A model generated the notes under the pieces. The model had not been told where the DNA came from and ran no database searches. It saw nothing but the letters and a program-made list of their open reading frames with translations. Made by a program: the position numbers and the translations under genes. A DNA stretch of 64,000 bases from positions 47,246 through 111,245 of the forward strand of contig DASUHM010000050.1 of NCBI GenBank assembly GCA_036273515.1, given 5' to 3'. How positions within the stretch are numbered: position 1 is the stretch's first letter; every line of letters starts with the position of its first letter. Positions 1 to 55,300 of this stretch are shown here, piece after piece. This DNA comes from Gaiellales bacterium. Its GTDB lineage: Bacteria; Actinomycetota; Thermoleophilia; Gaiellales; JAICJC01.

Positions 1-45
1 ATATGCGCGGCGCGCCTTCTTGCCGCGTCCGATCTCAATTTCCAC
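1..45 (-). CDS. IMP dehydrogenase-related protein (GuaB3-like), first 15 codons only; the gene continues off the left edge
   Basis: GTG at 45-43 has GGAGAGG about 9 nt upstream. It translates VEIEIGRGKKARRAY, which resembles the N-terminus I recall for actinobacterial GuaB3-type proteins. Too short to be sure. Confidence 0.3.
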   Translation of the reverse strand, partial: MEIEIGRGKKARRAY

Positions 46-181
46 GCGTGACCGCCTCTCCTCCTGCCCGCGATCCTCCAAAACGCACACGACCCAGGCG
101 GCTGGGGGCCGGCCCGGGTCGTAACGTGAATCGCTGAGCGCCGCAAGCTACTTTCAAAGTTGGGCGCAGTCTACCAGCGGG

Positions 182-1150
182 TCAGGACGCGGCCCGTGTT
201 CCCGCCGGCCTGATCTCCTGCACCTCGACCATGCCGGCAAACCGGGACACGTCGCGGGGATCGAACACGCCCGCGCCCACCGTCTGCGAGTTGGCGGCGC
301 CGCACGCGAGCGCCCGCCGCACGCACTCCTCGGGCTGCTGCTCGGCGGCCTGGGCGGCGACAAAGCCGGCCAGGAGCGACTCGCCCGAGCCGACCGAGGA
401 GACCGCCTCGACCTGCGGGATCCAGGCCCGGTACATCTGCGCCCGCCCGCGCCCGGTGCGCAGCAGCGCGTAGCAGCCGGTGCGCAGCGCGATCAGCACG
501 CTCGCGGCGCCCATCGAGGCGATCTCGGAGAGCCCGTCCTGGAAGTCCTCGTCAGTCTGGAACTCGTGCCCGACGAGCGCCTCCGCCTCGCGCTGCTCCG
601 TCGATACCAGGCTTGGCTGGGCGACGAGTGCCTTGCGCAGCGGCTCGCCGTCGCAGTCGATCACCGTGCGCACCTTGCGCTTCGTCATGTCGGAGATCAT
701 CCCGGCGTAGAGCTCTGTCGGCACCTTGCGCGGCAGGCTGCCGGCCAGCACCACCGTCGATACGGCGCCGCTCAGGTAGTGCAGCTTCTCCCGCAGCATG
801 GCGAGCTCGTCCTCGCCCACCTCGGGGCCGTACTCGTAGATCTCGGTCTGGACGCCGCTCGTCGGGTCGACGACCACCGTCGACGTGCGCGACTCGCCGC
901 GGATGCGGACGAAGTCGTTCAGGATGCCCGCCTCGGTCATCCCGTCGAGAATGTGGCTGCCCGTGCGGCCGCCGGCGAGGCCGGTCGCGATCACGGGCTC
1001 GCCCAGGCGCTTGAGCGCGCGGGCGACGTTCACTCCCTTGCCTCCCGGGATCACGATGCCCTGCTGCGCGCGGTGGCGATGACCCAGCTGGAGGTTCGGG
1101 ACGGTGAGCGTCTTGTCGACCGCGGCGTTCGCGGTCACGGTGAGGATCAT
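182..1150 (-). CDS. pfkB: PfkB-family sugar kinase (1-phosphofructokinase / tagatose-6-phosphate kinase subgroup)
   Basis: 322-aa ORF. It has the MILTVTANAAVDKT N-terminus, GGKGVNVA, and the C-terminal SVGSGESLLAGF...ACGAANS typical of FruK/LacC/PfkB ribokinase-fold kinases. Confidence 0.85.
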   Translation of the reverse strand: MILTVTANAAVDKTLTVPNLQLGHRHRAQQGIVIPGGKGVNVARALKRLGEPVIATGLAGGRTGSHILDGMTEAGILNDFVRIRGESRTSTVVVDPTSGVQTEIYEYGPEVGEDELAMLREKLHYLSGAVSTVVLAGSLPRKVPTELYAGMISDMTKRKVRTVIDCDGEPLRKALVAQPSLVSTEQREAEALVGHEFQTDEDFQDGLSEIASMGAASVLIALRTGCYALLRTGRGRAQMYRAWIPQVEAVSSVGSGESLLAGFVAAQAAEQQPEECVRRALACGAANSQTVGAGVFDPRDVSRFAGMVEVQEIRPAGTRAAS

Positions 1151-1221
1151 CGGCGTGCCACCCTCATCGGCGTCGCCGATTCTATACGCGCTTCACGCCA
1201 AGAAACTGTAAACTTGCAGGG

Positions 1222-1548
1222 ATGTTCGGTACTCGCACCCGCACGATCGTGACCGTCGCGGTCGTGGTCGAGGGTGCGATCGCCGGGTGGGCACTCGGCG
1301 CGGGCTGGTTCGGGCTGCTGGCGATGGTCGCCGCGGTGACCCTCGCCGACACGGCCTGGGGGATCGCCCGGAGGGGCGCGATCGCCGACTTCGCCGGGCT
1401 CGAGGTGGCCCTCGCGCTGGCGGTCATGATCGCCGTCGGCGCCCCGGGCACGATGACCGCGCTCACGGCGGCGGCCTGCGCGGCGTGGGTCATCCGCGAC
1501 GGCCGTTCCGCGCCCGCAGCGACGGCCCGCGCACCAGAAGGGGTCTGA
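1222..1548 (+). CDS. small hydrophobic (membrane) protein, hypothetical
   Basis: 108-aa A/G/V/L-rich ORF with 2-3 TM-like segments. Its last codons (APEGV*) lie inside a repeated palindrome, so the 3' end is uncertain. Confidence 0.4.
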   Translation: MFGTRTRTIVTVAVVVEGAIAGWALGAGWFGLLAMVAAVTLADTAWGIARRGAIADFAGLEVALALAVMIAVGAPGTMTALTAAACAAWVIRDGRSAPAATARAPEGV

Positions 1549-1561
1549 CCCCGTTTGGTGC
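1531..1561. repeat. 31-nt palindromic intergenic repeat GCACCAGAAGGGGTCTGACCCCGTTTGGTGC (REP-like / bidirectional terminator hairpin)
   Basis: Near-perfect dyad centred on T1546, lying between convergent stops (TGA 1546-1548 and TGA 1563-1565 on the minus strand). It is 30/31 identical to 19347-19377. Confidence 0.85.
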
Positions 1562-1562
1562 G

Positions 1563-2351
1563 TCAGGCGCGCGCGGCGAGGGCGACCACCTCGTCGTGCA
1601 GCGGCGAGCCGCACGTCGTCAGACAGGAGCGGTTGTCGGCGATCGGCGAGCCGTCGATCTGGGTGATCGTGCCGCCGGCCTCGCGGACGATCACCTCGAC
1701 CGCGGTCGTGTCCCACGTGTGGACGATCGGGTCGACCATGATCTGGGCGGCGCCGCGGGCCACCAGCATGTGGCCCCAGAAGTCGCCCAGGCCGCGGACG
1801 CGCCAGGCCGACTCGGAGAGCGTGCGGTAGAACGGCTCGAAGCCGTTCTCCTGGGCCGATCGCAGGCCGCCCGAGACGACCATTGCATCGGCGAGCGACG
1901 TCGCGCGGACGCTGATCGGCTCGCCGTTCATGCGGGCGCCGCCGCCGGCCGTGGCCTCGTAGCTCTCCCCCAGGCCGGGCGCGTGGCAGACGCCGACAAC
2001 GACCGCCCCGTCGACCACCAGCCCGATCAGCGTCGCCCAGAGCGGGATCCCGACCATGTAACTGTGGGTGCCGTCGATCGGGTCGACCACCCAGGTCGGC
2101 GCGCCCGGCACGGGCTCACCGCCGCCCGCCGCGTGCAGGCCGTCCTCCTCGCCGAGCATGTTGTGGCCGGGGCGCGCCTCCGCCAGCCGGGCGCGGATCG
2201 CCTGCTCGGCGGCGATGTCGGCATCGGTCACCCAGCTCCCGTCGCCCTTTCGCGTCGCCGGCGGGTGGTGCATGTAGCGCTCGTGGGCGATGCCGCCGCC
2301 GAGCAGGGCGAGCTCGCGGGCCAGCTCGAGGTCGGCGGTCTGGTCGCTCAC
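1563..2351 (-). CDS. hisN: inositol-monophosphatase-family phosphatase, most like histidinol-phosphatase HisN
   Basis: Start set at GTG 2351 (VSDQTADLELA...). IMPase motifs are present: LGEED, WVVDPIDGT, WDTTAVEVIVREAGG. The C-terminal pattern resembles actinobacterial HisN. GTGA overlap with the pyrF stop. The upstream 300 aa of the track ORF is Arg-rich junk. Confidence 0.7.
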   Translation of the reverse strand: MSDQTADLELARELALLGGGIAHERYMHHPPATRKGDGSWVTDADIAAEQAIRARLAEARPGHNMLGEEDGLHAAGGGEPVPGAPTWVVDPIDGTHSYMVGIPLWATLIGLVVDGAVVVGVCHAPGLGESYEATAGGGARMNGEPISVRATSLADAMVVSGGLRSAQENGFEPFYRTLSESAWRVRGLGDFWGHMLVARGAAQIMVDPIVHTWDTTAVEVIVREAGGTITQIDGSPIADNRSCLTTCGSPLHDEVVALAARA

Positions 2352-3226
2352 ACCGCGAGCACGGATCGGCGCAGCTCCGACGCGGCGGTGCGGATGCCCT
2401 GGCGCCAGTCGCCACCGCGGTCGCGCCAGGCGTAGATGACCGAGCGCGACGGCGCGATCAGCCCGCCGGCGGGATGCGTCGCCGTCGCGGCGTGCAGCAC
2501 ATCCGGGCGGCCGCCCTGCGCGCCGATGCCGGGGAGCAGGAGGATCGCGTGCGGCATCAGCTCGCGTGCGCGGGCGACGGCCTCGGGCTGGGTGGCCCCG
2601 ACGACCGCGCCGACCGCGGAGAGCCCGCTCTCGCCGACGTGCTCCTCGCCCCACCGGGCGACGAGACCCGCGAGCCGCTCCCATACGAGCTCGCCGCTGC
2701 CGAGCTCCGCCTCCTGCAGGTCGGCACCGCCCGGGTTCGACGTCCGCGTCAGGATGAAGAGGCCCGACCCCTCGCCGCACGTCGCCAGGAACGGCGTCAG
2801 CGAGTCGCCGCCCATGTAGGCGTTCAGGGTGATCGCGTCGCCGGCCGGCGGGGTGCCGTCGCGGCGGTGCAGCCACGCCTCGGCGTACGCCTCGGCTGTC
2901 GAGGCGATGTCGCCCCGCTTGGCGTCGACGATCACGAGCAGCCCGGCGTCGCGCGCGTGGGCGCAAACGCGCTCGAGCGCGGAGATACCGACGCCGCCGA
3001 GCGCCTCGAAGAACGCCACCTGGGGCTTCACGGCGACCGCCTCGTCGGCGACCGCGTCGATCACGCCGCTGCAGAAGCGCTCGTATGCGCGGGCGCGGCC
3101 GGACGCGCCGGGGTGGAGGCCCGTGATGACCTCCGGCGGCAGCAGGTCGATGCGGGGATCGAGACCGACGCAGAGGCAGCTCTGCTTGCGCTCCACCGCC
3201 TCGGCGACGCGATCTCCGAAGTTCAT
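2348..3226 (-). CDS. pyrF: orotidine 5'-phosphate decarboxylase (type 2, long form)
   Basis: ATG 3226 (MNFGDRVAEAVERKQSCLCVGLDP...). Motifs VGLDP, VDAKRGDI and LLPGIGAQGG are present. 4-nt overlaps on both sides. Confidence 0.9.
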   Translation of the reverse strand: MNFGDRVAEAVERKQSCLCVGLDPRIDLLPPEVITGLHPGASGRARAYERFCSGVIDAVADEAVAVKPQVAFFEALGGVGISALERVCAHARDAGLLVIVDAKRGDIASTAEAYAEAWLHRRDGTPPAGDAITLNAYMGGDSLTPFLATCGEGSGLFILTRTSNPGGADLQEAELGSGELVWERLAGLVARWGEEHVGESGLSAVGAVVGATQPEAVARARELMPHAILLLPGIGAQGGRPDVLHAATATHPAGGLIAPSRSVIYAWRDRGGDWRQGIRTAASELRRSVLAV

Positions 3227-5124
3227 CTCCGCAAGGGTACCGTCCGCCGCAGCCGGACGAGTCGCGCCGTCGCGTCGGACACCGTGGCGGCATCGATGGC
3301 CACCGCGCGCAGCGACGGCGAGGGCCGCGCGAGCGCCGCCGCGACCACCCGGGCCTGGTCGGCCTGCGCCGGCGAGAAGGGCGCCGGCGGGCTGCGCAGG
3401 CCGTGCGCGAGCGCGGCGACGAGGGCGTCGGCCTCGAGGCGGCCGTCGCCCGCGCGCGGCAGCCGCCGCCGGGCGACCACCCGGCCGCCGGCGCACGCGA
3501 ACGACTGCACGAAGCGCTCGTCGACGTCGGGCGCGAGCACGATCCCGCTCCGCCCCGACGAGCGCCGCAGGCGGATCAACGCGCGCCGCCCGCGCTCGAG
3601 CGCCGCCAGCTGATCGCGGGCCGCCGCGGCCTGCTCGTAGCGGCGCTCGGCGGCGAGCTTCCCCATCCGCGCCCGCACCTGCTCCTGCGGTCCGCCCCGG
3701 TCGTCGCCGTCGAGCCATGTCCGGGCCTCGGCCAGCGCCGCGGCGTAGGCGTCGACCGCCGGGCCGCCGCGGCACGGCGCCCGGCACGTCCCGATGATCC
3801 CGGCCAGGCAGGAGCCGTCGTCGACCGGCAGAGCCGGGCGGCACACCCGCAGCCCGAACGTTTCGCGCATGGCCGTGGCGACCGCCTCGGCCTGGGCCCG
3901 CGAGCGCAGCGGCCCGGCGGTGACGTCGCCGGGCCCGCCCGGCTTCGCCGAGACGCGCAGCCGCGGCACCGCCTCGGACAGCGTGAGCACGAGGTAGCAC
4001 GCCCTGTCCGGATCGGCCCCGCGCGTGTTCGCGGGCGGCCGCAGCCGCTCGATCAGCTCGAGCTCGAGCAGCGCCGCCTCGAACTCCGAGCCGAGCGGCC
4101 GCGTCTCGACCCGCGCCGCCGCCTCCACCGCCCGCTCGACCTGCGCCCGCAGCGCCCGCCCGGTGAAGTACGACCGCACCCGGGAGCGCAGGTCGGTGGC
4201 CTTGCCGACGTAGAGGACGCGCTCCGTCGCGTCGCGGAAGAGGTACACGCCCGGCCCGGTCGGCACCCCCGACGCCAGCGCGCGACGGCCGGACACGCGC
4301 CGCTGCGCCGGCGCGCACAGGCCGATCACCTCGCCCACCGTCGCGGCGCCGTGCTCCTGGGCGACGCCGAGCAGCCGCAGCAGCACCTCGGCGGTGGCCT
4401 CGGCGTCGGGCAGCGCCCGGTGGCACGGACGCACCTCGGTGTCGAAGCGCTCGGCCAGCGTCGCGAGCGCCATCCGCGGCAGCCGGTCGCCGATCAGGCG
4501 CCGCGCCAGCGCAACCGTGTCGATGACCGGCGCCGCCAGGCGCCCGCCGCGAAGCCGGCGCAGCTCGGTGTCGACGAACCCGACGTCGAAGCGGGCGTTG
4601 TGCGCGACGAGCACCGCGCCGGCGCTGAAGCGCAGGAACTCGGCCATGACGCTCTCGATGCGGGGCCGCCCGCGCACGTGGGCGGGAGAGATGCCGGTGA
4701 GCGCGGTGATCGCCGGCGGGATCGGCACGAGCGGGTCGACGAGCCGCTCGAGCCGGGCGACCGGCTCGAGGCCCGAGAGCCGCACCGCCCCCACCTCGAC
4801 GATGCGCGACTCGCCGGGCCGGGTGCCGGTGGTTTCGAGGTCGAAGACGACGTAGTCGGCCCGCTCGAGCGGCGCGTCGAGCAGCGACCCCGACGCGTCC
4901 TCCCAGTCGGCCAGCACGACCTCGTCGCCGGAGCGCCAGGCGAAGCGGGCGTCGGCCTTGATGACCTCGTCGACGAGCTGGCGAACGAGCGCCGCGGGGG
5001 CGCTTCGCAGCGCGAAGAGGCACGTCGCTGCGTCGGCGATCGAGAGCGGCCGCCCGGCCTCGGCCAGGCGGGCGTGCAGGCGGTCGCCGCCGTCGAGGGT
5101 GAGCTGGGCGCCGTTGGCTCGCAT
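3223..5124 (-). CDS. DEDD (DnaQ-like) 3'-5' exonuclease fused to a GIY-YIG nuclease domain (Cho/UvrC-N-like)
   Basis: Exonuclease motifs: VVFDLETTG, VAHNARFDVGF, HRALPDAEAT. These are followed by the GIY-YIG core GVYLFRD...VLYVGKATDLRSRVRSYF. Start is taken at ATG 5124 so that the LexA box lies upstream; ATG 5142 is the alternative. Confidence 0.85.
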   Translation of the reverse strand: MRANGAQLTLDGGDRLHARLAEAGRPLSIADAATCLFALRSAPAALVRQLVDEVIKADARFAWRSGDEVVLADWEDASGSLLDAPLERADYVVFDLETTGTRPGESRIVEVGAVRLSGLEPVARLERLVDPLVPIPPAITALTGISPAHVRGRPRIESVMAEFLRFSAGAVLVAHNARFDVGFVDTELRRLRGGRLAAPVIDTVALARRLIGDRLPRMALATLAERFDTEVRPCHRALPDAEATAEVLLRLLGVAQEHGAATVGEVIGLCAPAQRRVSGRRALASGVPTGPGVYLFRDATERVLYVGKATDLRSRVRSYFTGRALRAQVERAVEAAARVETRPLGSEFEAALLELELIERLRPPANTRGADPDRACYLVLTLSEAVPRLRVSAKPGGPGDVTAGPLRSRAQAEAVATAMRETFGLRVCRPALPVDDGSCLAGIIGTCRAPCRGGPAVDAYAAALAEARTWLDGDDRGGPQEQVRARMGKLAAERRYEQAAAARDQLAALERGRRALIRLRRSSGRSGIVLAPDVDERFVQSFACAGGRVVARRRLPRAGDGRLEADALVAALAHGLRSPPAPFSPAQADQARVVAAALARPSPSLRAVAIDAATVSDATARLVRLRRTVPLRR

Positions 5125-5125
5125 A

Positions 5126-5139
5126 CGAACACATGTTCG
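5126..5139. promoter_or_regulatory. LexA (SOS / Cheo) box CGAACACATGTTCG
   Basis: Perfect CGAAC-N4-GTTCG dyad in the short divergent intergenic region, 1 nt from ATG 5124 of the DnaQ/GIY-YIG gene. Confidence 0.6.
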
Positions 5140-5169
5140 CATACGCGACGGACGATTAGGCTCCTCCCG

Positions 5170-6117
5170 GTGTTAAGGATCTTCGCCAGCATGCCGCTGC
5201 GCGGCCCGGCCGGTGCGACCGGACGCGACATCGTCCGCGGGGCCGAGCTCGCGCTCGGTCGATCCGCGGCACCCGGCGTCGAGCTCGTGACCCGCGACGC
5301 CTGGGACGAGGATCGCGACGCTTGCGCGGTCGCCAACGCGCGCCGGGCTGCGGCCGACGCGACCGCGGTCGCATACCTGGGCGACTTCCACTCCTCCCAG
5401 GTCGAGCGCACCGCGCCGATCCTGTCCGCTGCGGGGCTCCTCCAGGTGGCGCCCGGGGCGACGTACGCCGGACTCGGCGGCCCGACGCTCGTGCGCCTGA
5501 TGCCCGACGACCGGGCGCTCGCGCGGGGGATCGCGGGGTGGGTCGCCGGCGCCGGGCTGCGCAGCGTGCTCGTCGTCCACGACCACGACGACGGCTACGG
5601 CGTGCCGGTCGGCGGGATGTGCCTGCGGGCGCTACGGGACGCCGGACTGGATGCGCGCGCCCGCCCGGTGTGGGATCACGACGAGCGGATCGCCGCCGAC
5701 CTCGAGGGCGCCGACGCGGTGCTCTATGCCGGCGTGGCCGGGTCGGGCGCCGCGGCTCTCTGGGGCAACCTGCACCGGCACGGTCCCGGACGCTGGCTGC
5801 TCGCCACCGACGGCCTTGCGGTCGACGGGTTCGCGCGGGAGCTCGACGCCCACGCGGCCGAGCGCACCCGCCTGTTCACGTCCCAGCGCGCGCCGTGGGG
5901 GTTCTACGGCTACGAGGCGGCCGCGCTGATCCTCGACGCGATCGCGGAGGCCGGCGGCGACCGCGCCGGGGTCGTCGGGACCGCACGGACCACGCGCGAC
6001 CGGGAGTCGATCCTCGGCCGCTATTCGATCGACGCGGGCGGTCTCACCACGGCTCCTGCCGACGGCGTCCTGGCCATCGTCGAGGGAGAGATCGTCTGGG
6101 AGCGACGCGCGCCTTGA
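5170..6117 (+). CDS. type-I periplasmic-binding-protein-fold protein (LivK/Peripla_BP_6-like) without a signal peptide
   Basis: Motifs: PLRGPAGATGRDIVRGAELAL, VAYLGDFHSS, FYGYEAAALILDAI. GTG 5170 restores a first beta-strand (LRIFAS); ATG 5191 is the alternative. No signal peptide or lipobox is visible. Confidence 0.65.
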   Translation: MLRIFASMPLRGPAGATGRDIVRGAELALGRSAAPGVELVTRDAWDEDRDACAVANARRAAADATAVAYLGDFHSSQVERTAPILSAAGLLQVAPGATYAGLGGPTLVRLMPDDRALARGIAGWVAGAGLRSVLVVHDHDDGYGVPVGGMCLRALRDAGLDARARPVWDHDERIAADLEGADAVLYAGVAGSGAAALWGNLHRHGPGRWLLATDGLAVDGFARELDAHAAERTRLFTSQRAPWGFYGYEAAALILDAIAEAGGDRAGVVGTARTTRDRESILGRYSIDAGGLTTAPADGVLAIVEGEIVWERRAP

Positions 6118-6124
6118 AAGCGTG

Positions 6125-6160
6125 CGCCGGGCCGCCCGCGGCGCAGCGGGCGGCCCGGCG
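6125..6160. terminator. bidirectional hairpin between convergent genes
   Basis: 15-bp perfect inverted repeat CGCCGGGCCGCCCGC / GCGGGCGGCCCGGCG with a 6-nt loop, between the stops at 6117 (+) and 6170 (-). No U tract. Confidence 0.6.
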
Positions 6161-6169
6161 GGCAGGTTC

Positions 6170-6448
6170 CTACTGCTTGACCGCGGCCTTCAGCTGGCTG
6201 CCGGCAGAAAACTTCGGCACCTTGCTGGCCGGGATGGTGACTTTCTGGCCAGGGTTGCGCGGGTTCACGCCGGTGCGCGCCTTGCGTGCCTGCACGCTGA
6301 ACTTCCCAAAACCGGTGAAGGTGACCTCGTCGCCCTTCTTGAGCGCGTCCTTCACGGAATCGAGCACCGCGTCGAGCGCCGCGCCGGCGTCCTTCTTGGA
6401 CAGTCCGGACCTGGTCGCCACGGCGTCGATAAAGTCGCTCTTGGTCAC
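6170..6448 (-). CDS. hup: nucleoid-associated DNA-binding protein HU
   Basis: GTG 6448 directly follows AGGAGG. 92 aa with the classic GFGKFSVQARKARTGVNPRNPGQKVTIPASKVPKFSAG arm. Confidence 0.93.
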   Translation of the reverse strand: MTKSDFIDAVATRSGLSKKDAGAALDAVLDSVKDALKKGDEVTFTGFGKFSVQARKARTGVNPRNPGQKVTIPASKVPKFSAGSQLKAAVKQ

Positions 6449-6541
6449 GTGTCCTCCTGGGTCGTTTGTCCGGGAACCTGTGAAGCGGCCACACCCTATC
6501 ACCGCGGTCGGACGGCCACAATCGCCCTACCGGAGCCAGTT

Positions 6542-7099
6542 TCAGGCTGTCTGAGGGGTCGGCGTGAGGCCGAGGGATTCGACGGTGAAGAGGGCGGCGT
6601 ACGGCACGCCTTCTGCGGCGATCGCCTCGGCGCCCCCCTCCTGACGGTCAACCACCGAAATTGCAGCACAAATGTCGAGATTTTCAGCTCGCAGAGCGGC
6701 AATGGCGGACAGCAGCGCACCGCCCGACGTGACCACGTCCTCGATCACGCAGACGGCCGTCCCCGGCGCCCAGACGCCCTCGAGACGATTGCCCGTGCCG
6801 TAGTCCTTCGTATCTTTTCGCACGATCACGAACGGCATGCCGGACTCGATCGAGGCCGCCGCCGTCAGCGGCACCGCGCCCAGCTCGGGGCCCGCCAGAA
6901 GCGCCGCCTGGGGCGCATGCTCGCGCACCATCGCGGCCAGCTCGCGGCCCAGCCCGGCCAGCAGCTGCGGGTCGGTCTCGAAGCGGTACTTGTCGAGGTA
7001 GTAGCGGCTGCGCCGGCCCGAGCGCAGGACGAAGTCGCCCTCGAGATATGCGCGCTCCACCAGCCGGCGGCCGAGCTCGGCCCGGCCGGACGACGTCAC
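6542..7099 (-). CDS. pyrE: orotate phosphoribosyltransferase
   Basis: 185 aa. Motifs: GDFVLRSGRRSRYYLDKY, and the PRPP loop VCVIEDVVTSGGA. Confidence 0.92.
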   Translation of the reverse strand: MTSSGRAELGRRLVERAYLEGDFVLRSGRRSRYYLDKYRFETDPQLLAGLGRELAAMVREHAPQAALLAGPELGAVPLTAAASIESGMPFVIVRKDTKDYGTGNRLEGVWAPGTAVCVIEDVVTSGGALLSAIAALRAENLDICAAISVVDRQEGGAEAIAAEGVPYAALFTVESLGLTPTPQTA

Positions 7100-7302
7100 C
7101 CGGCCTCCGCCAGCAGGTCGCGGGCGATCGGCAGCAGGCGGTCGGCGTCTGGGGCGCCGGTCGCCAGCGAGAGCATCGAGCCGTCGTCGAAGTAGAGGTC
7201 GACGCGGGTGCGGTTGCGGGCGCTGCGGCGGCGGTAGAAGATCGTGCCCGCGAAGGAGCCCGCGCCGATCAGCGCGCCGATGATGATCCGGCGCTTAGGC
7301 AT
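7096..7302 (-). CDS. small single-TM protein, hypothetical
   Basis: 68 aa with an N-terminal TM (RRIIIGALIGAGSFAGTIFY) and a soluble tail. ATGA overlap with pyrE, and an 8-nt overlap with the upstream Roadblock gene. Confidence 0.5.
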   Translation of the reverse strand: MPKRRIIIGALIGAGSFAGTIFYRRRSARNRTRVDLYFDDGSMLSLATGAPDADRLLPIARDLLAEAG

Positions 7303-7684
7303 CGCCGCTCTCCCCCGCGTCCGCCGGCGCCGCCGCCGCTCCGTCGTCGTCCAGCTGGCGCAGGAGCGTCTTCAGGTCGTAGAACACGAGGCCGACCGTC
7401 GGGTCGGCGCCGGTCGTCGCGACGGCCATGCGGTCGCCGTCGAGCACCACGAACACGCTCCCGTCCGGCGTTGCCGCCTGGAGCTGGGAGAGCGCGTCGC
7501 GGCCGAGATCGGCGCGGACGGTGTCCGCGCCCGCGACCAGGTCGCGGGCCAGCCCGCCGAGCCGCTCGGCCCGGTCGCCCTCGACGGTGGAGGCGGTCAC
7601 CGAGCCGTCCCGGGCGGCCACCATGATCACGTCGATCTGGGTAGAGAGGCTGCGTAGCTCGTCGATCGCGGCGGCTGCATCCAT
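7295..7684 (-). CDS. Roadblock/LC7 (MglB-like) domain protein
   Basis: Start at ATG 7684 (MDAAAAIDELRSL...). Robl_LC7 pattern: ...VIMVAARDGSV...SVFVVLDGDRMAVATTGADPTVGLVFYDLK. Confidence 0.6.
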   Translation of the reverse strand: MDAAAAIDELRSLSTQIDVIMVAARDGSVTASTVEGDRAERLGGLARDLVAGADTVRADLGRDALSQLQAATPDGSVFVVLDGDRMAVATTGADPTVGLVFYDLKTLLRQLDDDGAAAAPADAGESGDA

Positions 7685-7701
7685 CGAGTTGAACCTAGCA
7701 C

Positions 7702-8592
7702 ATGCCGATATTCTCACCGCCGATGGCGGCCAATACCCCGAAGATGGTGCTGCATCCGCTGCGCACCGCGGCCAAGCACGGGCATCCCGTCATCTCGAAG
7801 TACCTGCGCGACCGCGGCCCGCACCTCGCGGCGATGGTCGCCTACTACGCCCTGCTCTCGCTCGTGCCGTTCCTGTTCCTGACGGCGTCGCTGCTCGGAT
7901 TCGCGGGGCACGTCTCGCCCAGCTCCTACCTGATCCGTGAGCTGGCCCACATCCTGCCCGGCCAGTCCGCGCGCGACCTGCTCCACACCGTCCAGGCGAT
8001 CCAGCGCGACGCGGGCACGCTCGGGGCGATCGGCCTGATCGGCCTCGTGTGGGGCACGCTCGGGTTCTACTCGGCGCTCGAGTCGGCGCTGAACATCGTG
8101 TTCGGCGTCCAGAACCGCACGTTCCTGCACCAGAAGTGGGTCACGTTCGTGCTCGTAACGGTCTCGCTGCTCGTGCTCTTCACGTCGCTGATCGTGACCA
8201 CGGCGGCGACCGGCTGGTACCACCGCCACGCGCCCCACCTGGTCGACCTGAAGCTGATCCCGTTCGTCGCCACCCTGGCCGCGACGACGGTCGGAATCTT
8301 CCTCTTCCTGACCGCCGTCTACAAGTACCTGACCAACGTCGAGCTGCACCTGGCGGACGTGTGGCCGGGCGCGCTCGTCGGGACGGTGCTCTTCCAGGGC
8401 CTCTTCTCGGGCCTCTCGCTCTACCTGCGCTTCTCCGACCAGCTCCTCACGCTGCGCGCCTTCGGCGGGCTGGTGCTCCTGCTGGTGTGGCTCTACCTGA
8501 TGGCGAACATCATCGTGCTCGGCGCCGAGATCAACTGGTGGCACTGGTCGCGCAGGCAGCCGGCCGAGCCGGAGCTCGAGGGGCTGGCGTGA
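7702..8592 (+). CDS. YihY/BrkB-family (RNase BN-like) inner-membrane protein
   Basis: 296 aa and multi-TM. Motifs: AAMVAYYALLSLVPFLFL ... LVWLYLMANIIVLGAEIN. The start may be one of the downstream in-frame ATGs (7723 or 7744). Confidence 0.8.
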   Translation: MPIFSPPMAANTPKMVLHPLRTAAKHGHPVISKYLRDRGPHLAAMVAYYALLSLVPFLFLTASLLGFAGHVSPSSYLIRELAHILPGQSARDLLHTVQAIQRDAGTLGAIGLIGLVWGTLGFYSALESALNIVFGVQNRTFLHQKWVTFVLVTVSLLVLFTSLIVTTAATGWYHRHAPHLVDLKLIPFVATLAATTVGIFLFLTAVYKYLTNVELHLADVWPGALVGTVLFQGLFSGLSLYLRFSDQLLTLRAFGGLVLLLVWLYLMANIIVLGAEINWWHWSRRQPAEPELEGLA

Positions 8593-8806
8593 GCGATCCG
8601 GTCGACGCGCAGCTCGCCGCCTACAACGCGCGCGATGCCGAGGCGTTCGCAGCGTGCTACGCCGAGGACGTCGTACGGGCCCTTCTTCGCCGCGGCGCCC
8701 GACCTGCATGTCGAGATCGAGACGCGGATCCGGATCGACGCGCACGTGATCGACGAAGAGCCGATTGGCGTTCGACCCGAATGTCAATTGCAGAGATGGC
8801 ACCTGA
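8589..8806 (+). pseudogene. NTF2/SnoaL-like protein, apparently disrupted by an internal deletion and frameshift
   Basis: GTG 8589 (GTGA overlap with the yihY stop) gives VSDPVDAQLAAYNARDAEAFAACYAEDVV. Family-like sequence then resumes in the +1 frame at 8674 (YGPFFAAAPDLHVEIETRIRIDAHVIDEE). That frame has no nearby stop; the third frame stops at 8804-8806. Confidence 0.45.
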
Positions 8807-8814
8807 CGACGCGG

Positions 8815-9585
8815 TCACGCCCGCGTCCACAGCGCGCCCGAGCTGTACCGCCGCAGGCCGATCCGGAACGTCGTCACCGCCATGAGGGCGAAGAACGCCG
8901 CCGCGGCGATCGCCGCCAGCGCGACCGGCCAGCGGAAGCTCGACACGAGGCTCGTCGGGAGGCCGGTCACGAACGCCGCGGGCACCGCCGTGAAGAGGAA
9001 CAGCTTCGTCAGCCCCCCGAACACGTCGATCGGGTAGGAGGCGAAGATCAGGATCGCCTGGAAGCCCAGGTCGGCCTGCTCGCCGCGCCCGCCGGCGAAC
9101 AGCGTCACCGACCCCAGCGCGACCAGGAAGCCCACCAGCACCACCGTCCCGCAGATCGCGCCGAACACGAAGATCAGCGCCCGCTCGGGCGTCGGGTCGC
9201 CGGCCACCAGGAAGAGCACGGGCCCGAAGGCGAGGTCGCCGAGGAGGGCAGTGTCCACCCGCCGCGTCAGCAGGTAGGTGAGCGGATTCGTGGGCAGTGC
9301 GAGAGCGGCGTCGAGCGACCCGCCGGCGATCAGCTCGCCCAGCCGGCGTGAGTTCGAGAGCAGGCCGAGGCCGGTGCCGCTCACCGTCGTCAGGATCGCG
9401 AACAGCAGCAGCACCTTGTGGGTGTCCCAGCCCTTCAGCGACCCGACCTTGCGGAAGAAGAGCACCCAGAAGATCACCCAGGCCACGTCGTTCGCGGCCA
9501 TGATCCCGATCTGGAACCAGAACCCGCGCCGGTTCGACCAGGCCTCCAGAAACGCGGTGCGCAGGGTGGCGAGGGCGACGGTCAT
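8815..9585 (-). CDS. ABC-2 type transporter permease (DUF990-like)
   Basis: ATG 9585 (MTVALATLRTAFLEAWSNRRGFWFQ...). 256 aa, 6 TM-like segments. ATGA overlap with the upstream permease. Confidence 0.8.
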   Translation of the reverse strand: MTVALATLRTAFLEAWSNRRGFWFQIGIMAANDVAWVIFWVLFFRKVGSLKGWDTHKVLLLFAILTTVSGTGLGLLSNSRRLGELIAGGSLDAALALPTNPLTYLLTRRVDTALLGDLAFGPVLFLVAGDPTPERALIFVFGAICGTVVLVGFLVALGSVTLFAGGRGEQADLGFQAILIFASYPIDVFGGLTKLFLFTAVPAAFVTGLPTSLVSSFRWPVALAAIAAAAFFALMAVTTFRIGLRRYSSGALWTRA

Positions 9586-10358
9586 CCGCCCACCACCTCC
9601 AGCCGCCGCTCGCCGGCCCGGAAGACGCCGCCGGCGCAGGCGAGCAGGGCCACGAGCCACGCCGCCTGCGCGAGCAGGAGCCACGGCTCCACATGCCCCG
9701 ACGCCAGCCGCGCGGGGGCGTACGCCATCGCCGCGAACGGCAGCGCCTTGGCCACGTCGGCGAGCCCGGTCGGCAGGAACTCGAGCGGCAGCAGCATCCC
9801 GCCGAGCAGGAACACGAGCTTCTGGTACAGGAACCAGGTCGAGCGGGCGTCGCGCAGCCAGAACGCCGCGCCGGCGAACGCGTGCTGCGCCGCCAGGTTG
9901 CAGCCGACGGCGAGCAGGCTCGCCGGGACGAAGAGCGCGATGCCGGCGGCGCTCGGCGGCGGCCCCACATAGAGCCAGACGATCACGCCGCCGACCGCCA
10001 GCGACGCCACGAGCCGCACGAGCGCCTCGCCCAGCTCGGCCGCCAGCCGCAGCCCGACGACGGAGGCCGGCCGCAGCATCTCGGTCACGATGGCGCCGGA
10101 GGATATGTCCCAGCCGATGGTCTCGATCATCCGCGGCTTGGTGGCGATCACCGAGCCCTCGGCCGCGGCCACGTACCAGAGCAGCGAGTGGGCGGTGTAG
10201 CCCGAGATCGAGCCGCCGTTGGCCTTCGTCGCCGCCGACCACAGGGCCGAGAAGATGACCAGGATGAGCGCGTAGAACGTCACCCGCACGGCCAGCTCGC
10301 CGCGCTGGCGCATCGTCCGCCGGGCCGAGAGGTGCAGCTGGGCGAGGAGGGCGCTCAC
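9582..10358 (-). CDS. ABC-2 type transporter permease (second subunit)
   Basis: GTG 10358 (VSALLAQLHLSARRTMRQRGELAVRVTFY...). 258 aa, multi-TM. GTGA overlap with the ATPase stop. Confidence 0.8.
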   Translation of the reverse strand: MSALLAQLHLSARRTMRQRGELAVRVTFYALILVIFSALWSAATKANGGSISGYTAHSLLWYVAAAEGSVIATKPRMIETIGWDISSGAIVTEMLRPASVVGLRLAAELGEALVRLVASLAVGGVIVWLYVGPPPSAAGIALFVPASLLAVGCNLAAQHAFAGAAFWLRDARSTWFLYQKLVFLLGGMLLPLEFLPTGLADVAKALPFAAMAYAPARLASGHVEPWLLLAQAAWLVALLACAGGVFRAGERRLEVVGG

Positions 10359-11296
10359 GTCCGCCCCTCGTAGATCTCCGAGATGACCTGCTCGAGCGGC
10401 GGATCGACCACGGAGATGTCTGCGATCGCATAGCTGTCGAGCAGCTCGTCGAGCACCTCGCGCACCGACAGGCGGCGGGTGTCCACCACCAGGCCGTAGA
10501 CCGTGTCGGACTCCGAGGTCACCTGCACGCCGTCGATCTCGAGCCCGTCCGGCGCCTCCTCGAAGCGCACCTCGAGCAGCTTCGTCTGCAGCAGCGAGCG
10601 CCGCATCCGGCCCACCTGGTCGTCGTAGATGATCGTGCCGTGGTTGATCACGACGACCCGGTCGGCCACGTGCTCGATGTCGGCCACGTCGTGCGAGGTG
10701 AGAAAGACGGTGGTGCCGTGCTCCTCGTTCAGGCGCACCACCATCTCGCGGAAGCGCTGCTTGGCGATCAGGTCGAGTCCGATCGTGGGCTCGTCGAGAA
10801 AGAGCACCTCGGGCCCGTGCAGCACCGTCGCGGCGAGCTCGCAGCGCATTCGCTGGCCGAGCGAGAGCGAGCGCACCGGCTGGTCGATCAGGTCGGTGGC
10901 GTCGAGCAGCTCCGCCAGCTCGTCGGTGCGGCGGCGGGCATCGTCGGGGTCGAGCCGGTAGATCCGCGCGAGCAGGTGCAGCGTCTGCCGGGTGGTGAGC
11001 TCGAACCAGAGCTGGGAGCGCTGGCCAAAGAGCGTGCCGATGCGGCGGGCGAGGTCGCGACGCTGGGTCCACGGCACGAGGCCGAGCACCGTCGCCTCGC
11101 CGCGAGTCGGGTGCAGGATGCCCGTGAGCATCTTGATCGACGTCGACTTGCCGGCGCCGTTCGGGCCGATGTAGGCCAGCCGCTCGCCTCGCTCCACGGT
11201 GAAGGTGATGTCGCGCACGGCCTCGACGCGGCGGCGGTCGCGGCCGCGGCCGGCGGTGAATTCCTTGGAGAGCTCGGTGGTCGAGATGGCAAGCAT
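10355..11296 (-). CDS. ABC transporter ATP-binding protein
   Basis: Walker A GPNGAGKST, signature LSLGQRMR, Walker B VLFLDEPTIGLD. Start taken at ATG 11296 (MLAIS...); the track's TTG 11311 lies in a terminator U tract. Confidence 0.9.
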   Translation of the reverse strand: MLAISTTELSKEFTAGRGRDRRRVEAVRDITFTVERGERLAYIGPNGAGKSTSIKMLTGILHPTRGEATVLGLVPWTQRRDLARRIGTLFGQRSQLWFELTTRQTLHLLARIYRLDPDDARRRTDELAELLDATDLIDQPVRSLSLGQRMRCELAATVLHGPEVLFLDEPTIGLDLIAKQRFREMVVRLNEEHGTTVFLTSHDVADIEHVADRVVVINHGTIIYDDQVGRMRRSLLQTKLLEVRFEEAPDGLEIDGVQVTSESDTVYGLVVDTRRLSVREVLDELLDSYAIADISVVDPPLEQVISEIYEGRT

Positions 11297-11307
11297 GGGT
11301 CGGTCCA

Positions 11308-11335
11308 ACAAAAAGCCCCGGTGGGTGTCCGGGGC
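11308..11335 (-). terminator. intrinsic-terminator-like hairpin (attenuator) immediately upstream of the ABC-2 operon start
   Basis: Minus strand reads GCCCCGG-ACACCCA-CCGGGGC followed by TTTTTGTT. The hairpin ends 12 nt before ATG 11296. Confidence 0.65.
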
Positions 11336-11478
11336 GGCGGCGGTGCAGAGATGATGCGAGATCGATCTAGTGCGCGCGACGCCCCGGCCCGGCGGGGTAC
11401 GCCGGGACCATGACCTTCGTCTCGTGGGAGCGACACGTCATCCCGACCACGATAGCCGCACTCCTCCCGAAAGTGCAA
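11336..11478 (-). promoter_or_regulatory. candidate promoter, leaderless 24-codon sORF and antiterminator arm (leader of the ABC-2 operon)
   Basis: TTGCAC (11478-11473), an 18-nt spacer, TATCGT (11454-11449), then 7 nt to ATG 11441. The sORF is MTCRSHETKVMVPAYPAGPGRRAH* (11441-11367). A second CCGGGGC copy (11387-11381) can pair with the terminator 5' arm. Confidence 0.4.
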
Positions 11479-11490
11479 CGGAAATCGCCG

Positions 11491-11520
11491 TGAACAAACG
11501 GGCCTGACCCGTCTATTCAG
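11491..11520. repeat. palindromic repeat, TGAAYAAA...GTCTATTCA subfamily
   Basis: TGAACAAACGGGCCTGACCCGTCTATTCAG is closely similar to 48824-48855. It overlaps the last codons and the TAG stop of rdgB. Confidence 0.7.
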
Positions 11521-12088
11521 GGAGCTTCGGGCGCAGGGCCGCGGCGGCGCGGGCGCGGTGCGACATCGCGTCCTTCTCCTCGGGGGACATCTCGGCGACC
11601 GTGCGCGTCTCGCCGTCCGGCACGAACGCCGGGTCGTAGCCGAAGCCGCCGCTCCCGCGCGGGGCCTCGGCAAGCGTCCCGGTCAGCTCGCCGCGGGCGT
11701 GGAGCTCCGCGCCGCCGGGGGCGATCGCGACCAGCTCGGCGACGTAGCGGACGCGGCGGTCTTCTTGCCCATGGAGCGCCGCCAGGAGCTTCGCCAGGTT
11801 CTGCTCGTCGGTCGCGTCCTCGCCGGCGTAGCGGGCCGAGCGCACGCCGGGCACCCCGCCGAGCGCGGCCGCCTCGATGCCCGAGTCGTCGGCCAGCACC
11901 CAGTCGCCGCCGCCGGTTGCCGCGAACACGTGCCGCGCCTTCAGGAGCGCGTTCGCGACGAACGTGTCGCCGGTCTCCTCGGGCAGCTCGCCGCCGAACG
12001 CCTGCACGTCCCAGCCCGGCAGCACCCGCGCGAGCTCGACGGCCTTGTGCGCGTTCCCCGACGCGAGCACGATCCTGCGGCCGCTCAC
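11513..12088 (-). CDS. rdgB: non-canonical purine NTP pyrophosphatase (RdgB/HAM1)
   Basis: GTG 12088 (VSGRRIVLASGNAHKAVEL...). Motifs: ADDSGIE, GFGYDPAF, MSHRARA. GTGA overlap with rph. Confidence 0.9.
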   Translation of the reverse strand: MSGRRIVLASGNAHKAVELARVLPGWDVQAFGGELPEETGDTFVANALLKARHVFAATGGGDWVLADDSGIEAAALGGVPGVRSARYAGEDATDEQNLAKLLAALHGQEDRRVRYVAELVAIAPGGAELHARGELTGTLAEAPRGSGGFGYDPAFVPDGETRTVAEMSPEEKDAMSHRARAAAALRPKLPE

Positions 12089-12807
12089 GCCTCCCGCAGC
12101 ACCCGGGCCTGGTCGCGGCCGATCGTCTCGATGCCGCCGGCGGCCAGTTCGAGCAGGCGGTCGAGCGACGCCCGCCCGAACGGCGTCCGCTCGGCCGTCG
12201 CCTGCACCTCGATCAGCTCGCCCGAGCCCGTCATGACGACGTTCATGTCCACCTCGGCGCGGCTGTCCTCCGCGTAGGGCAGGTCGAGCAGCGGCTCGCC
12301 GTCGACGATCCCGACCGACACGGCCGCGACCGAGTCGCGCAGCGGCACGCGCTCGAGCGCGCCCTTGCCGACGAGCCGCGAGAGCGCCACGTGCAGGGCC
12401 ACGTAGCCGCCGCAGATGGCCGCGCAGCGGGTGCCGCCGTCGGCCTGGATCACGTCGCAGTCGATCCACGCCGTGCGCTCGCCGAGCGCCTTGAAGTCGA
12501 CGACGGAGCGCAGCGAGCGACCCACCAGGCGCTGGATCTCGACCGTGCGGCCGTCGACACGGCCGCGGCTCGAGTCGCGCGACTTCCGCTCCGACGTCGA
12601 CCCGGGCAGCATGCCGTACTCGGAGGTGACCCAGCCGGTGCCGCGCCCGCGCATCCACGGCGGCACGGACTCCTCGACCATCGCGGTGCAGATCAGCCGG
12701 GTCGAGCCGATCTTGAAGAGCGCGGAGCCCGACGCCGACGGGATGAAGTCGAGCTCGATCTCGACCGGGCGCAGCTCGTCGGCCGCGCGGCCGTCGCCGC
12801 GGCTCAT
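12085..12807 (-). CDS. rph: ribonuclease PH
   Basis: ATG 12807 (MSRGDGRAADELRPVEIELDF...). Motifs: GSALFKIGSTRLICTA and DCDVIQADGGTRCAAI. The rest of the 1134-aa track ORF is an artefact. Confidence 0.93.
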   Translation of the reverse strand: MSRGDGRAADELRPVEIELDFIPSASGSALFKIGSTRLICTAMVEESVPPWMRGRGTGWVTSEYGMLPGSTSERKSRDSSRGRVDGRTVEIQRLVGRSLRSVVDFKALGERTAWIDCDVIQADGGTRCAAICGGYVALHVALSRLVGKGALERVPLRDSVAAVSVGIVDGEPLLDLPYAEDSRAEVDMNVVMTGSGELIEVQATAERTPFGRASLDRLLELAAGGIETIGRDQARVLREA

Positions 12808-13628
12808 GCGGCCACCCGCAGCGTGTCGGCGTCGACGCGCTCGACCTCGGTCAGCGGCAGCTGCAGGAACCGGCCGGCCACGTCGCGGAACGCCGTCGGG
12901 TCGCCGGTGCAGAGGAAGCGGTAGTCGCCCTCGCGGTCCGGGTCGTTGCCGACGCCGCGGCGGGCGATCGTCTCGGCCACCTCGCGCGCGATCTCCTCTG
13001 CCGACGTGATCAGCGTGACGTCGCGGCCGAAGATGCGCTGCAGCATCTGGCGGATGAGCGGGTAGTGGGTGCAGCCGAGGATGACGGTGTCGGCGCCGGC
13101 CAGCTTCAGCGGCGCGGCGTAGGTCTTGGCCGCCTCGTGCAGGTCGTGGCCGTGGGTGTCGCCGCTCTGGATGAGCGGCACGAGCTCGGGGCAGGCCACC
13201 TGCGTCACGTCGATCCCCGCGTCGAGCGCGTGCACCGCCGCCGGGTAGCGGCCGCTCGTGACCGTCGCCTGGGTCGCCATCACGCCGACGCGGCGGTTGC
13301 GGGTCACCTGCACGGCCGCGCGGGCCTCGGGCGTGATCACGCCGATCAGCGGCACGGCGAACTCGCGCTGCAGCTCTGGCAGCGCCGCAGATGTCGCCGC
13401 GTTGCACGCGACGACCACGAGCTTCGTGTCGAGCTCCGCCAGGTGGGTGGCGATCTCGTGGGCGAAGCGGCGGATCGTCGCCGCGGGCTTGGGGCCGTAC
13501 GGGAAGCGGTCGGGCGAGGAGTCGCCGAAGTACACGAAGTCCTCGTGCGGCAGGGTCACCAGGCACTCGTGGAGCACCGTCAGGCCGCCGACGCCGGAGT
13601 CGAACATCCCGATCGGGCGCGCATCCAT
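12804..13628 (-). CDS. murI: glutamate racemase
   Basis: 274 aa. Motifs: IGMFDSGVGGLTV, VVACNAATS, ILGCTHYP. Confidence 0.93.
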   Translation of the reverse strand: MDARPIGMFDSGVGGLTVLHECLVTLPHEDFVYFGDSSPDRFPYGPKPAATIRRFAHEIATHLAELDTKLVVVACNAATSAALPELQREFAVPLIGVITPEARAAVQVTRNRRVGVMATQATVTSGRYPAAVHALDAGIDVTQVACPELVPLIQSGDTHGHDLHEAAKTYAAPLKLAGADTVILGCTHYPLIRQMLQRIFGRDVTLITSAEEIAREVAETIARRGVGNDPDREGDYRFLCTGDPTAFRDVAGRFLQLPLTEVERVDADTLRVAA

Positions 13629-19063: not shown

Positions 19064-19081
19064 CCGACGCACACCCGGCAA

Positions 19082-19113
19082 CCCGCCAGGAGGGGCAGAC
19101 CCCTTCTGGCGGG
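19082..19113. repeat. palindromic repeat (inverted-orientation variant: CCCGCCAGGAGGGGCAGACCCCTTCTGGCGGG)
   Basis: 14-bp stem with one G:T pair and a 4-nt loop, 19 nt after the permease stop. Its minus strand shares CCAGAAGGGGTCTG with the copies at 1531 and 19347. Confidence 0.75.
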
Positions 19114-19115
19114 TC

Positions 19116-19333: not shown

Positions 19334-19346
19334 CGGCCGAGCATAC

Positions 19347-19377
19347 GCACCAGAAGGGGTCTGACCCCGTCTGGTGC
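19347..19377. repeat. 31-nt palindromic repeat GCACCAGAAGGGGTCTGACCCCGTCTGGTGC
   Basis: 30/31 identical to 1531-1561. It lies 10 nt from the stop of the HAD gene (19387). Confidence 0.85.
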
Positions 19378-19386
19378 GCCCGCGCG

Positions 19387-34754: not shown

Positions 34755-34776
34755 CGGACGGTCAGACCCCGTTCCG
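34755..34776. repeat. hairpin carrying the GGTCAGACCCC core (member of the palindrome family)
   Basis: CGGACGGTCAGACCCCGTTCCG, located 52 nt upstream of the islet gene start. Confidence 0.5.
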
Positions 34777-48823: not shown

Positions 48824-48855
48824 TGAATAAAAGCGGTCTGACCCCGTCTATTCAG
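48824..48855. repeat. palindromic repeat, TGAAYAAA...GTCTATTCA subfamily
   Basis: TGAATAAAAGCGGTCTGACCCCGTCTATTCAG. Partner of 11491-11520. It contains the TGA stop (48852-48854) of the NlpC/P60 gene. Confidence 0.7.
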
Positions 48856-54200: not shown

Positions 54201-54207
54201 CTCAGAT

Positions 54208-55188: not shown

Positions 55189-55195
55189 CGGGCAT

Positions 55196-55227
55196 GGGAC
55201 TGTCCCCGGCAGGGCGGGGACAGTCCC
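55196..55227 (+). terminator. hairpin terminator after cysA
   Basis: 13-bp perfect stem GGGACTGTCCCCG / CGGGGACAGTCCC with a 6-nt loop, 8 nt after the TGA. No U tract. Confidence 0.6.
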
Positions 55228-55233
55228 CGAGCA

Positions 55234-55300
55234 CCGGGGTCAGACCCCGAACGGAAGCGTCACGAACGTGCAACGACCGGCGTTCGGGGTCTGACCCCGG
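55234..55300. repeat. composite element: two palindrome-family cores as a perfect 20-bp inverted repeat around a 27-nt spacer
   Basis: CCGGGGTCAGACCCCGAACG (55234-55253) and CGTTCGGGGTCTGACCCCGG (55281-55300). The right arm abuts the TAA stop (55301-55303) of the minus-strand permease gene. Confidence 0.8.

Follow-up and report, generated by a model that had tools for sequence, protein, structure and literature searches.

The window analysed here is a 64-kb stretch (64,000 nucleotides) of DNA from a Gaiellales bacterium (GenBank assembly GCA_036273515.1, contig DASUHM010000050.1, forward-strand positions 47,246 to 111,245), and all positions below are counted from its first letter. Scattered between its genes is a family of hairpins that resemble repetitive extragenic palindromes (REPs). 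The part common to all copies is the 13-nt palindrome GGGGTC(T/A)GACCCC, and GGGGTCWGACCCC is the commonest 13-nt palindrome of the window. In this G+C-rich DNA (68-75%), GGGGTCWGACCCC is matched five times with no more than one mismatch (at 1540, 19356, 48833, 55236 and 55286) where 0.12 matches are expected, and none of 100 shuffled sequences gave five. The window inventory consists of three single hairpins of 31-35 nt (1530, 19081 and 19346), two degenerate copies (11491 and 48824) and one 67-nt inverted doublet (55234-55300). The original prediction, made from the sequence alone, had counted at least eight copies; the family is real, but the number of elements is seven, because 55234-55253 and 55281-55300 are exact reverse complements and form the two arms of a single inverted doublet.

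All ten sites named in that prediction were folded and compared with shuffled sequence. Strong hairpins were found at 1531, 11491, 19082, 19347 and 48824, and the folding free energies (dG), including that of the doublet, range from -23 to -61 kcal/mol. A covariance model built from copies in other genomes recovers 1526-1566, 19342-19382 and 19078-19117 at 43-62 bits, and matches the arms at 55234 and 55281 and the copy at 48829 only in part. The first hairpin (1530..1562, + strand, CGCACCAGAAGGGGTCTGACCCCGTTTGGTGCG; dG -31 kcal/mol, z -4.0; 61.5 bits over 1526-1566) belongs to a subfamily that is termed type A here. It abuts the 3' end of an inositol monophosphatase gene (1563-2351, -), and the TGA in its loop (1546-1548) closes a weak open reading frame (ORF) at 1249-1548. 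A second type A hairpin (19346..19378, +; dG -34 kcal/mol, z -5.0; 59 bits over 19342-19382) lies 9 nt from the 3' end of a HAD hydrolase gene (19387-20022, -). As predicted, 1531-1561 and 19347-19377 are identical at 30 of 31 positions and differ at one. The type B hairpin (19081..19114, ACCCGCCAGGAGGGGCAGACCCCTTCTGGCGGGT), which has a loop shorter by 1 nt, starts 18 nt past the stop codon of a permease gene; it folds with a dG of -39 kcal/mol (z -6.1), and its orientation is ambiguous (43.2 bits on the + strand, 41.1 on the -).

The two degenerate copies are classed as type D. The singlet at 11469..11520 (+; hairpin at 11491-11520, core GGGCCTGACCC; dG -22.8 kcal/mol, z -4.4) is preceded by a leftover of a doublet spacer, GAAAGTGCAACGG...CGCCG, and therefore looks like a decayed half-doublet. 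It overlaps the end of a Ham1 gene (11513-12088, -), the TAG stop codon of which (11513-11515) lies in the hairpin arm. A terminator-like hairpin, GCCCCGGACACCCACCGGGGC TTTTTG (11315-11335, -), is found downstream of the Ham1 gene and this REP, and ends 4 nt upstream of the start of an ABC-transporter gene. The other type D copy, TGAATAAAAGCGGTCTGACCCCGTCTATTCAG (48824..48855, +), folds with a dG of -23.7 kcal/mol and a z-score of -3.0 on the - strand, and gives a partial covariance model match of 16.5 bits. It is situated between convergent GntR (48096-48803, +) and NlpC/P60 (48852-49859, -) genes. These two copies had been said to share the outer arms TGAAYAAA...GTCTATTCAG; only the right flank recurs, in three copies elsewhere, and a regular-expression search of the loci described below shows that the TGAAYAAA left arm is absent from those three.

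Three of the proposed sites are not counted as members of the family. The site at 34755..34776 (-, ACGGTCAGACCCCGTTCCG) is doubtful and at best a decayed fragment: its core has two mismatches, its fold is no better than shuffled sequence (z +0.6) and its model match, at 34760, has an E value of 5. It lies 5' of a gene for a GmrSD-like (DUF262) restriction endonuclease (32409-34703, -), a gene situated in the lowest-GC part of the window (68%). The degenerate look-alike at 32022 (z -0.25) and the possibly related palindrome at 17351 (z -1.0) are not members: their folds do not surpass those of shuffled sequence either, and they have no significant model match. A central TCTGACCCCGT(C/T)T, thought to be shared by all copies, is present only in those at 1531, 19347 and 48824.

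The type C doublet (55234..55300, +) is a head-to-head, REPIN-like pair that reads CCGGGGTCAGACCCCGAACG, a 27-nt spacer GAAGCGTCACGAACGTGCAACGACCGG, and CGTTCGGGGTCTGACCCCGG (dG -56/-61 kcal/mol, z -7/-6.3). It has perfect terminal inverted repeats of 20-21 nt, lies between convergent ABC-transporter genes and is 82-88% identical to two of the loci found outside the window (L130 and L139). Directly beside it is a doublet of a sister family with the core GGGGACWGTCCCC (55195..55228, strand not assigned), and the two together are a cluster that resembles bacterial interspersed mosaic elements (BIMEs). The cores are distinguished here by the two inner stem bases after GGGG, as TC, CC or AC, and that of the sister doublet is an AC core. 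In looser searches the type C architecture takes the form CCGGGGTCAGACCCCGAACGG, about 25 nt, CCGTTCGGGGTCTGACCCCGG. Adjacent pairs of the form GGGGTCAGACCCC...GGGGTCTGACCCC at a spacing of 50-51 nt were found 42 times; the reverse polarity was seen in three pairs, with all spacings up to 130 nt considered. In the consensus of 40 distinct doublets the spacer resembles two GGAAGnGCAAC-like units, a pattern that the window copy fits. The head reads CCAGAA in types A and B, and either CCGTTC or CCGTAC in type C. The aligned doublets show no sign of a direct target duplication, since the outer bases AACC...GGTT prolong the inverted repeat. Lack of target duplication is expected of Y1 transposases.

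The family extends well beyond the window. A scan with the exact 20-mer CAGAAGGGGTCTGACCCCGT over one genome per GTDB species found 35 stretches, about 18 of them on different contigs of a single Thermoleophilia metagenome-assembled genome (MAG). The other matches are in six Actinomycetota-type MAGs (one labelled Gaiellales, one Actinomycetota and four uncultured Actinomycetes), with a few in Duganella species and single matches in two other MAGs. A scan of metagenomes of the Joint Genome Institute (JGI) added at least 120 loci (609 kb) with at least 215 exact cores, and all usable loci together contain 249 exact cores in 827 kb. In a 14-mer scan of viral contigs, the matches listed were single and scattered, and were uninformative. 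Back-to-back doublets of the same 13-nt palindrome, GGGGTCTGACCCCGTACGGGGTCAGACCCC, are found in six Duganella genomes (Betaproteobacteria; L125, L131, L138, L140, L144 and L148) and also in the metagenome contigs L163, L172 and L181.

Two subfamilies of single hairpins can be told apart by their flanks, type A being GCACCAGAAGGGGTCTGACCCCGTTTGGTGC and type B (GA)CCCGCCAGAAGGGGTCTGACCCCGTTTGGCGGG(TC). Among 36 aligned copies the proposed helix is 92% paired, compared with 36-51% in controls in which the pairing partner was slid along the sequence, and compensatory changes between A and B occur at two stem pairs, GC to CG (19:16) and AU to GC (18:17). Most copies retain a G.U pair (26/36) and leave an A/G position unpaired; the 13-nt palindromic core is invariant, which is more than pairing needs. 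Similarity between copies in different loci ends at the foot of the stem. Apart from the elements and short conserved gene segments, the loci and the window share no alignable DNA, so the elements are far better conserved than their surroundings. The suggestion that the hairpins propagate as an element is upheld by these near-identical copies in Thermoleophilia and Gaiellales MAGs whose genes are too diverged to align at the DNA level. Tandem B-A pairs occur in direct orientation. Local amplification is also seen: L173 has three type A hairpins with a 44-nt period (1334-1464, a local tandem amplification), and in L124 (600-900) a 117-nt unit made up of a type A hairpin and half of a type C doublet is duplicated.

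Placement relative to genes was assessed with a simple gene caller of our own, based on third-position G+C (GC3), and ten flanking genes were checked with Pfam. Except for the weak ORF at 1249-1548, these are ordinary genes (inositol monophosphatase, ABC transporters, Ham1, HAD hydrolase, GntR, NlpC/P60 and the GmrSD-like endonuclease). The gaps between convergent genes that hold elements in the window are 19063-19387, 48803-48852 and 55188-55301, with 1548-1563 in addition if the weak ORF is real. Positions more than 30 nt deep in a called gene make up 78% of the bases in the 827 kb of loci but contain only 7 of the 249 exact cores (2.8%); with 242 cores (97%) outside gene bodies, the equal frequency inside genes that would have spoken against a mobile family is not seen. 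Of the 64 A/B copies classified, 27 have convergent neighbours and 26 co-directional ones, the latter copies mostly following the upstream stop codon by no more than a few bases; 4 occupy divergent gaps, 6 are at contig ends, and 1 falls within a called gene, probably as an artefact of the start-codon call. Divergent gaps, where promoters lie, are thus depleted (4 of the 57 copies between two called genes), and the expectation that most copies sit at 3' ends of genes or between convergent genes is borne out both by the window gaps and by this larger set. That every copy is intergenic holds in so far as all credible copies lie outside gene bodies, but several overlap a stop codon. Indeed, several genes read into an element and stop at the TGA of its loop (GGG GTC TGA), including those at L130 3258-3260, L149 1611-1613 and L225 1309-1311.

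Such positions, together with the stability of the hairpins (dG -23 to -61 kcal/mol), are also what would be expected of terminators. Under this alternative the hairpins would be clade-specific factor-independent terminators of the U-tract-less 'I-shaped' kind, evolved independently and alike through selection for one optimal stem-loop. However, T runs are missing downstream of every copy, and none is flagged when 1-20000 and 44000-60000 are scanned for terminators, whereas the scan does report a canonical hairpin with a T run at 11335-11315, on the transcript strand of the 11491 copy and about 160 nt downstream of it. Nor is there an RNA strand preference. In co-directional gaps the strand that carries the G.U pair is the same as the transcript in 10 cases and opposite in 16, so the asymmetric features of the hairpin travel with the element and are not selected in RNA; in most copies the unpaired A/G position and the G.T pair are kept whatever the direction of transcription. 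Independent origins are also hard to reconcile with 31-nt sequences that are identical between genomes in which the genes cannot be aligned, with the conserved spacer of the doublets and with the flanking of transposase genes (see below), and this explanation is considered extremely improbable.

Alternatively, the hairpins could be protein-binding sites, recognised by a regulator or a nucleoid-associated protein or used as DNA-uptake signals, that were spread by selection and not by transposition. The invariant palindromic core, which goes past pairing needs, would suit a protein site, and the uptake signals of Neisseria also form inverted pairs at gene ends. Unlike uptake signals, though, 97% of the cores avoid gene bodies, and unlike operators, the A/B copies are depleted in divergent regions (4/57). 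Such sites would not be predicted to be associated with a transposase gene or to vary in core sequence together with its locus, as described next, and the proposal is highly improbable.

REPs of other bacteria are served by REP-associated tyrosine transposases (RAYTs), and a search for one elsewhere in the genome had been recommended. The ORFs of the window and the loci (1.03 Mb) were searched with three Y1 transposase sequences that served as probes only. Three ORFs matched, in L208, L235 and L225, each directly beside an element match. They score 32-41 bits with the Pfam model Y1_Tnp (cut-off 23), and their best family is the NCBIfam REP_Tyr_transpos ('REP-associated tyrosine transposase') at 70-77 bits, compared with 19.6 bits for the IS200 model. 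The relatives of the L225 protein number over 2,000, and JGI gives many of them the name RayT; the HUH motif (NHYHLAL) and RYIxxNPVRAGL are invariant among the RAYTs. A single-sequence search of the PDB gave no match with the RAYT, and the best PDB match of the RAYT profile is Escherichia coli TnpA-REP (4ER8, E = 6e-8), ahead of the ISDra2 transposase.

In all nine of the RAYT loci examined, GGGGnnWnnCCCC palindromes are present on both sides of the gene, and in L208, L235 and L225 these have the sequence GGGGTCWGACCCC on both sides. The orientation of the flanking copies differs, being inverted in L225, direct for both copies in L235 and direct for three of four in L208. Six further homologues (L282-L287) were obtained by similarity to the RAYT protein and so independently of any choice based on the element. 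These share one syntenic site, in which a Glycos_transf_4 gene next to the atp operon is followed by the RAYT and by upp-glyA-prmC-prfA. The sequence flanking the L225 gene is the same site, which brings the number of syntenic loci to seven, from different samples. The flanking copies are inverted in all seven: each locus has an inverted GGGGnnWnnCCCC-GAACG about 97 nt upstream of the RAYT and a matching palindrome at or just past its stop codon, and the RAYT reading frame terminates inside the right-hand REP (...PPPFGV*).

The core of the flanking palindromes varies between these loci: it is TC in L225, L282, L285 and L287, CC in L283, and AC in L284 and L286, the AC core being the GGGGACWGTCCCC of the window doublet at 55195..55228. 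The core co-varies with the transposase, the TC-core RAYTs being 74-82% identical to each other and 60-70% identical to the AC-core RAYTs. In L286 the similarity of the RAYT (4001-4540) is lost just before the catalytic RY motif, and in L282 (10001-10549) it diverges after NPVRAGL; judging by sequence, both may be frameshifted and decaying. The search recommended in the original prediction thus succeeded in related genomes and metagenome contigs, where RAYTs are flanked by the same palindrome, and failed in the 64-kb window itself.

These findings also bear on a further alternative, in which the elements would be MITEs (miniature inverted-repeat transposable elements) of an ordinary insertion sequence, moved by a multi-copy transposase other than a RAYT that recognises the 20-nt inverted repeats of the doublet. 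The perfect 20-21-nt terminal inverted repeats of the 67-nt doublet are as expected of a MITE. Target-site duplications are not, however, seen; the flanks AACC...GGTT are complementary and not direct repeats. Many copies are single hairpins, and beside copies no transposase was found other than a Y1 enzyme, which has a conserved syntenic position and is not a multi-copy insertion sequence. A MITE origin is therefore regarded as very unlikely.

Two syntenic loci were compared with the window. Proteins of metagenomes and of Gaiellales-labelled MAGs share 79-93% identity with the permease encoded at 17444-19063; an assignment of this gene as GroEL was rejected, the gene being that of an amino-acid permease. 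In L157, which is syntenic and 86% identical to the window, 21.6 kb contain a single TC core; it occupies the orthologue of the 11491 site, where it is one arm of a hybrid doublet with a CC core, next to an AC core. L158 (88% identity) has no core at up to two mismatches in 21.7 kb. Abundance is thus uneven, with seven elements in the 64-kb window compared to one TC core and none in these relatives. At the junction of the permease and HAD genes the window has 323 nt with two hairpins, whereas L157 and L158 have a 4-nt overlap and a 21-nt gap, without elements. Gain by transposition is hinted at by the unequal abundance and by the absence of the elements from this junction in L157 and L158. One intergenic gap of L157 (3990-4080) contains all three cores, as a CC/TC hybrid doublet with the usual spacer that adjoins an AC palindrome.

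The 233 nt between the two hairpins of this junction (19114-19346, -) are a remnant of a GrpB gene, in which the final 53 domain residues are left (Pfam GrpB, 56 bits). It is preceded in another frame by a P-loop-like GPMAAGKT, and the syntenic relatives have no gene here. The 19081 and 19346 hairpins were considered as the bounds of one inserted unit, and this was rejected: the region 19081-19346 is not a simple insertion, because the 233 nt between them are the gene remnant. Elsewhere in the window, a search with Rfam at gathering thresholds gave no match at the hairpins and found only a SAM (S-adenosylmethionine) riboswitch (45540-45652, -; RF00162, 84.6 bits), upstream of a gene for an enzyme dependent on pyridoxal phosphate (44272-45495, -; Pfam PALP). 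The window contains no tRNA genes.

Taken together, the hairpins are best understood as a REP/REPIN family, that is, short extragenic palindromes that are non-autonomous mobile DNA, a reading to which we assign a probability of about 85%. The original prediction had offered two interpretations; the REP/BIME-like one is favored by the dispersal of the copies, the doublets and clusters, and the flanking of RAYT genes, and the U-tract-less terminator is disfavored by the missing T-tail and strand bias. Under the REP reading, a chromosomally fixed and vertically inherited RAYT, a Y1/HUH tyrosine transposase, would recognise the folded single-stranded hairpin together with its 5' head CGT(T/A)C, and would cut and rejoin it. 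New copies would build up where they are tolerated, in the very short spaces that follow stop codons or separate convergent genes. The stem-loops are very stable, and in transcripts they would probably also act as barriers at mRNA 3' ends, a secondary role that is plausible in view of what is known about the REPs of E. coli. What the data show is the repeat family with its subfamilies, extragenic placement and doublets and, in related genomes, the physical association of RAYT and REP and their co-variation; that the RAYT moves the elements and that the genome of the window encodes such an enzyme are inferences.

Several observations weigh against this reading. The RAYT scores of 70-77 bits are just under the NCBIfam equivalog cut-off of 80, and the head found beside the RAYT genes is that of type C (CCGTTC) and not the A/B flank; in the loci examined, A/B singlets (flank CCAGAA...GTTTGG) were never seen beside a RAYT. 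As the window itself has no RAYT, the link to its organism rests on relatives. The metagenome loci were selected for containing the element, so the enrichment of RAYTs among them is not an unbiased estimate. The copy at 11491 is retained at the orthologous site in L157, and hence not every copy is recent. Gene contexts depend on the simple GC3 caller, and the GT(A/G)G head of classical gammaproteobacterial REPs is absent here.

The closest parallels are the REPIN-RAYT systems of Pseudomonas fluorescens SBW25 and other Proteobacteria (PMC3116915, PMC5581495, 10.1101/2021.07.10.451892). As defined there, a REPIN is an extragenic pair of inverted REPs, each built on a palindrome of some 14 bp, and is served by a RAYT that is kept as a single copy in that same extragenic space (10.1101/2021.07.10.451892). 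The present family is alike in having two inverted REPs with 13-14-nt palindromes and a spacer, in being almost exclusively extragenic, in having singlets beside doublets, and in the HUH motif and catalytic tyrosine of the transposase. It differs in its Gaiellales-like actinobacterial host, in the length of the doublet (67 nt, compared with about 100 nt), in a spacer that is semi-conserved (two GGAAGnGCAAC-like units) where that of the proteobacterial REPINs is highly variable, in the lack of a GTAG/GTGG head, and in an abundance of long single hairpins (types A and B). The REPs or palindromic units, BIMEs and TnpA-REP (RayT/YafM) of E. coli (PMC2817692, PMC3333891, 4ER8) also provide parallels, in imperfect 31-39-nt palindromes that lie at gene ends and have conserved positions left unpaired, in the clustering of unlike subtypes (here B beside A, and TC beside AC), and in a rayT bounded by REPs. 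However, tandem B-A pairs are direct here and alternate in E. coli, and the similarity of the RAYTs is remote (profile E = 6e-8).

The CGTC-tagged REP super-family (PMC3733652) is similar by description, with a conserved unpaired head, to which the CGT(T/A)C found here bears a resemblance, and with head-to-head dimers predominating. Its stems, however, are of 8-9 bp and start with A/T pairs, its loops are of 4-5 nt, and the tag is one base longer here; moreover, no dedicated transposase was found for that super-family (PMC3733652), whereas the palindromes described here flank a RAYT. The system resembles the IS200/IS605 insertion sequences in its Y1/HUH transposase, in subterminal hairpins that are recognised in single-stranded form and in the lack of target duplication. 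It differs from them in that the transposase is at a fixed syntenic site and apparently not multi-copy, that the hairpins far outnumber the gene, and that the best models are those of RAYTs.

This kind of system is already known, and the transposase is already labelled RayT by JGI. In the REP/RAYT and REPIN papers that were searched, no description was found of this repeat family, its core variants or its actinobacterial host, and the word Actinobacteria does not occur in them; searching the literature for the motif strings brought up nothing but unrelated primers and viral sequences, and nothing usable was found that links RAYTs to actinobacteria. We therefore suggest, tentatively, that this could be the first REPIN-RAYT system characterised in Actinomycetota, and one in which a single vertically inherited, fixed-locus RAYT switched the inner stem bases of its REP (GGGG-TC/CC/AC-W-..-CCCC) in sister lineages, with the cores coexisting, even as hybrid doublets, in single genomes. 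If this is true, the lineages form a natural series from which the recognition of a hairpin by its RAYT could be read, and the CGT(T/A)C head may connect the so far transposase-less CGTC super-family to RAYTs.

In these MAGs the elements account for many strong hairpins at gene ends and supply stop codons to several genes, and they are likely to break short-read assemblies and to cause gene ends to be called wrongly. Work on REP/REPIN-RAYT systems has dealt almost wholly with Proteobacteria, and the soil actinobacteria that are hosts here are abundant but uncultured. The compact 13-nt core, the fixed RAYT locus and the three co-varying cores (TC, CC and AC) make the system well suited to comparative work on the co-evolution of a domesticated transposase with its hairpins and on how long such elements persist.

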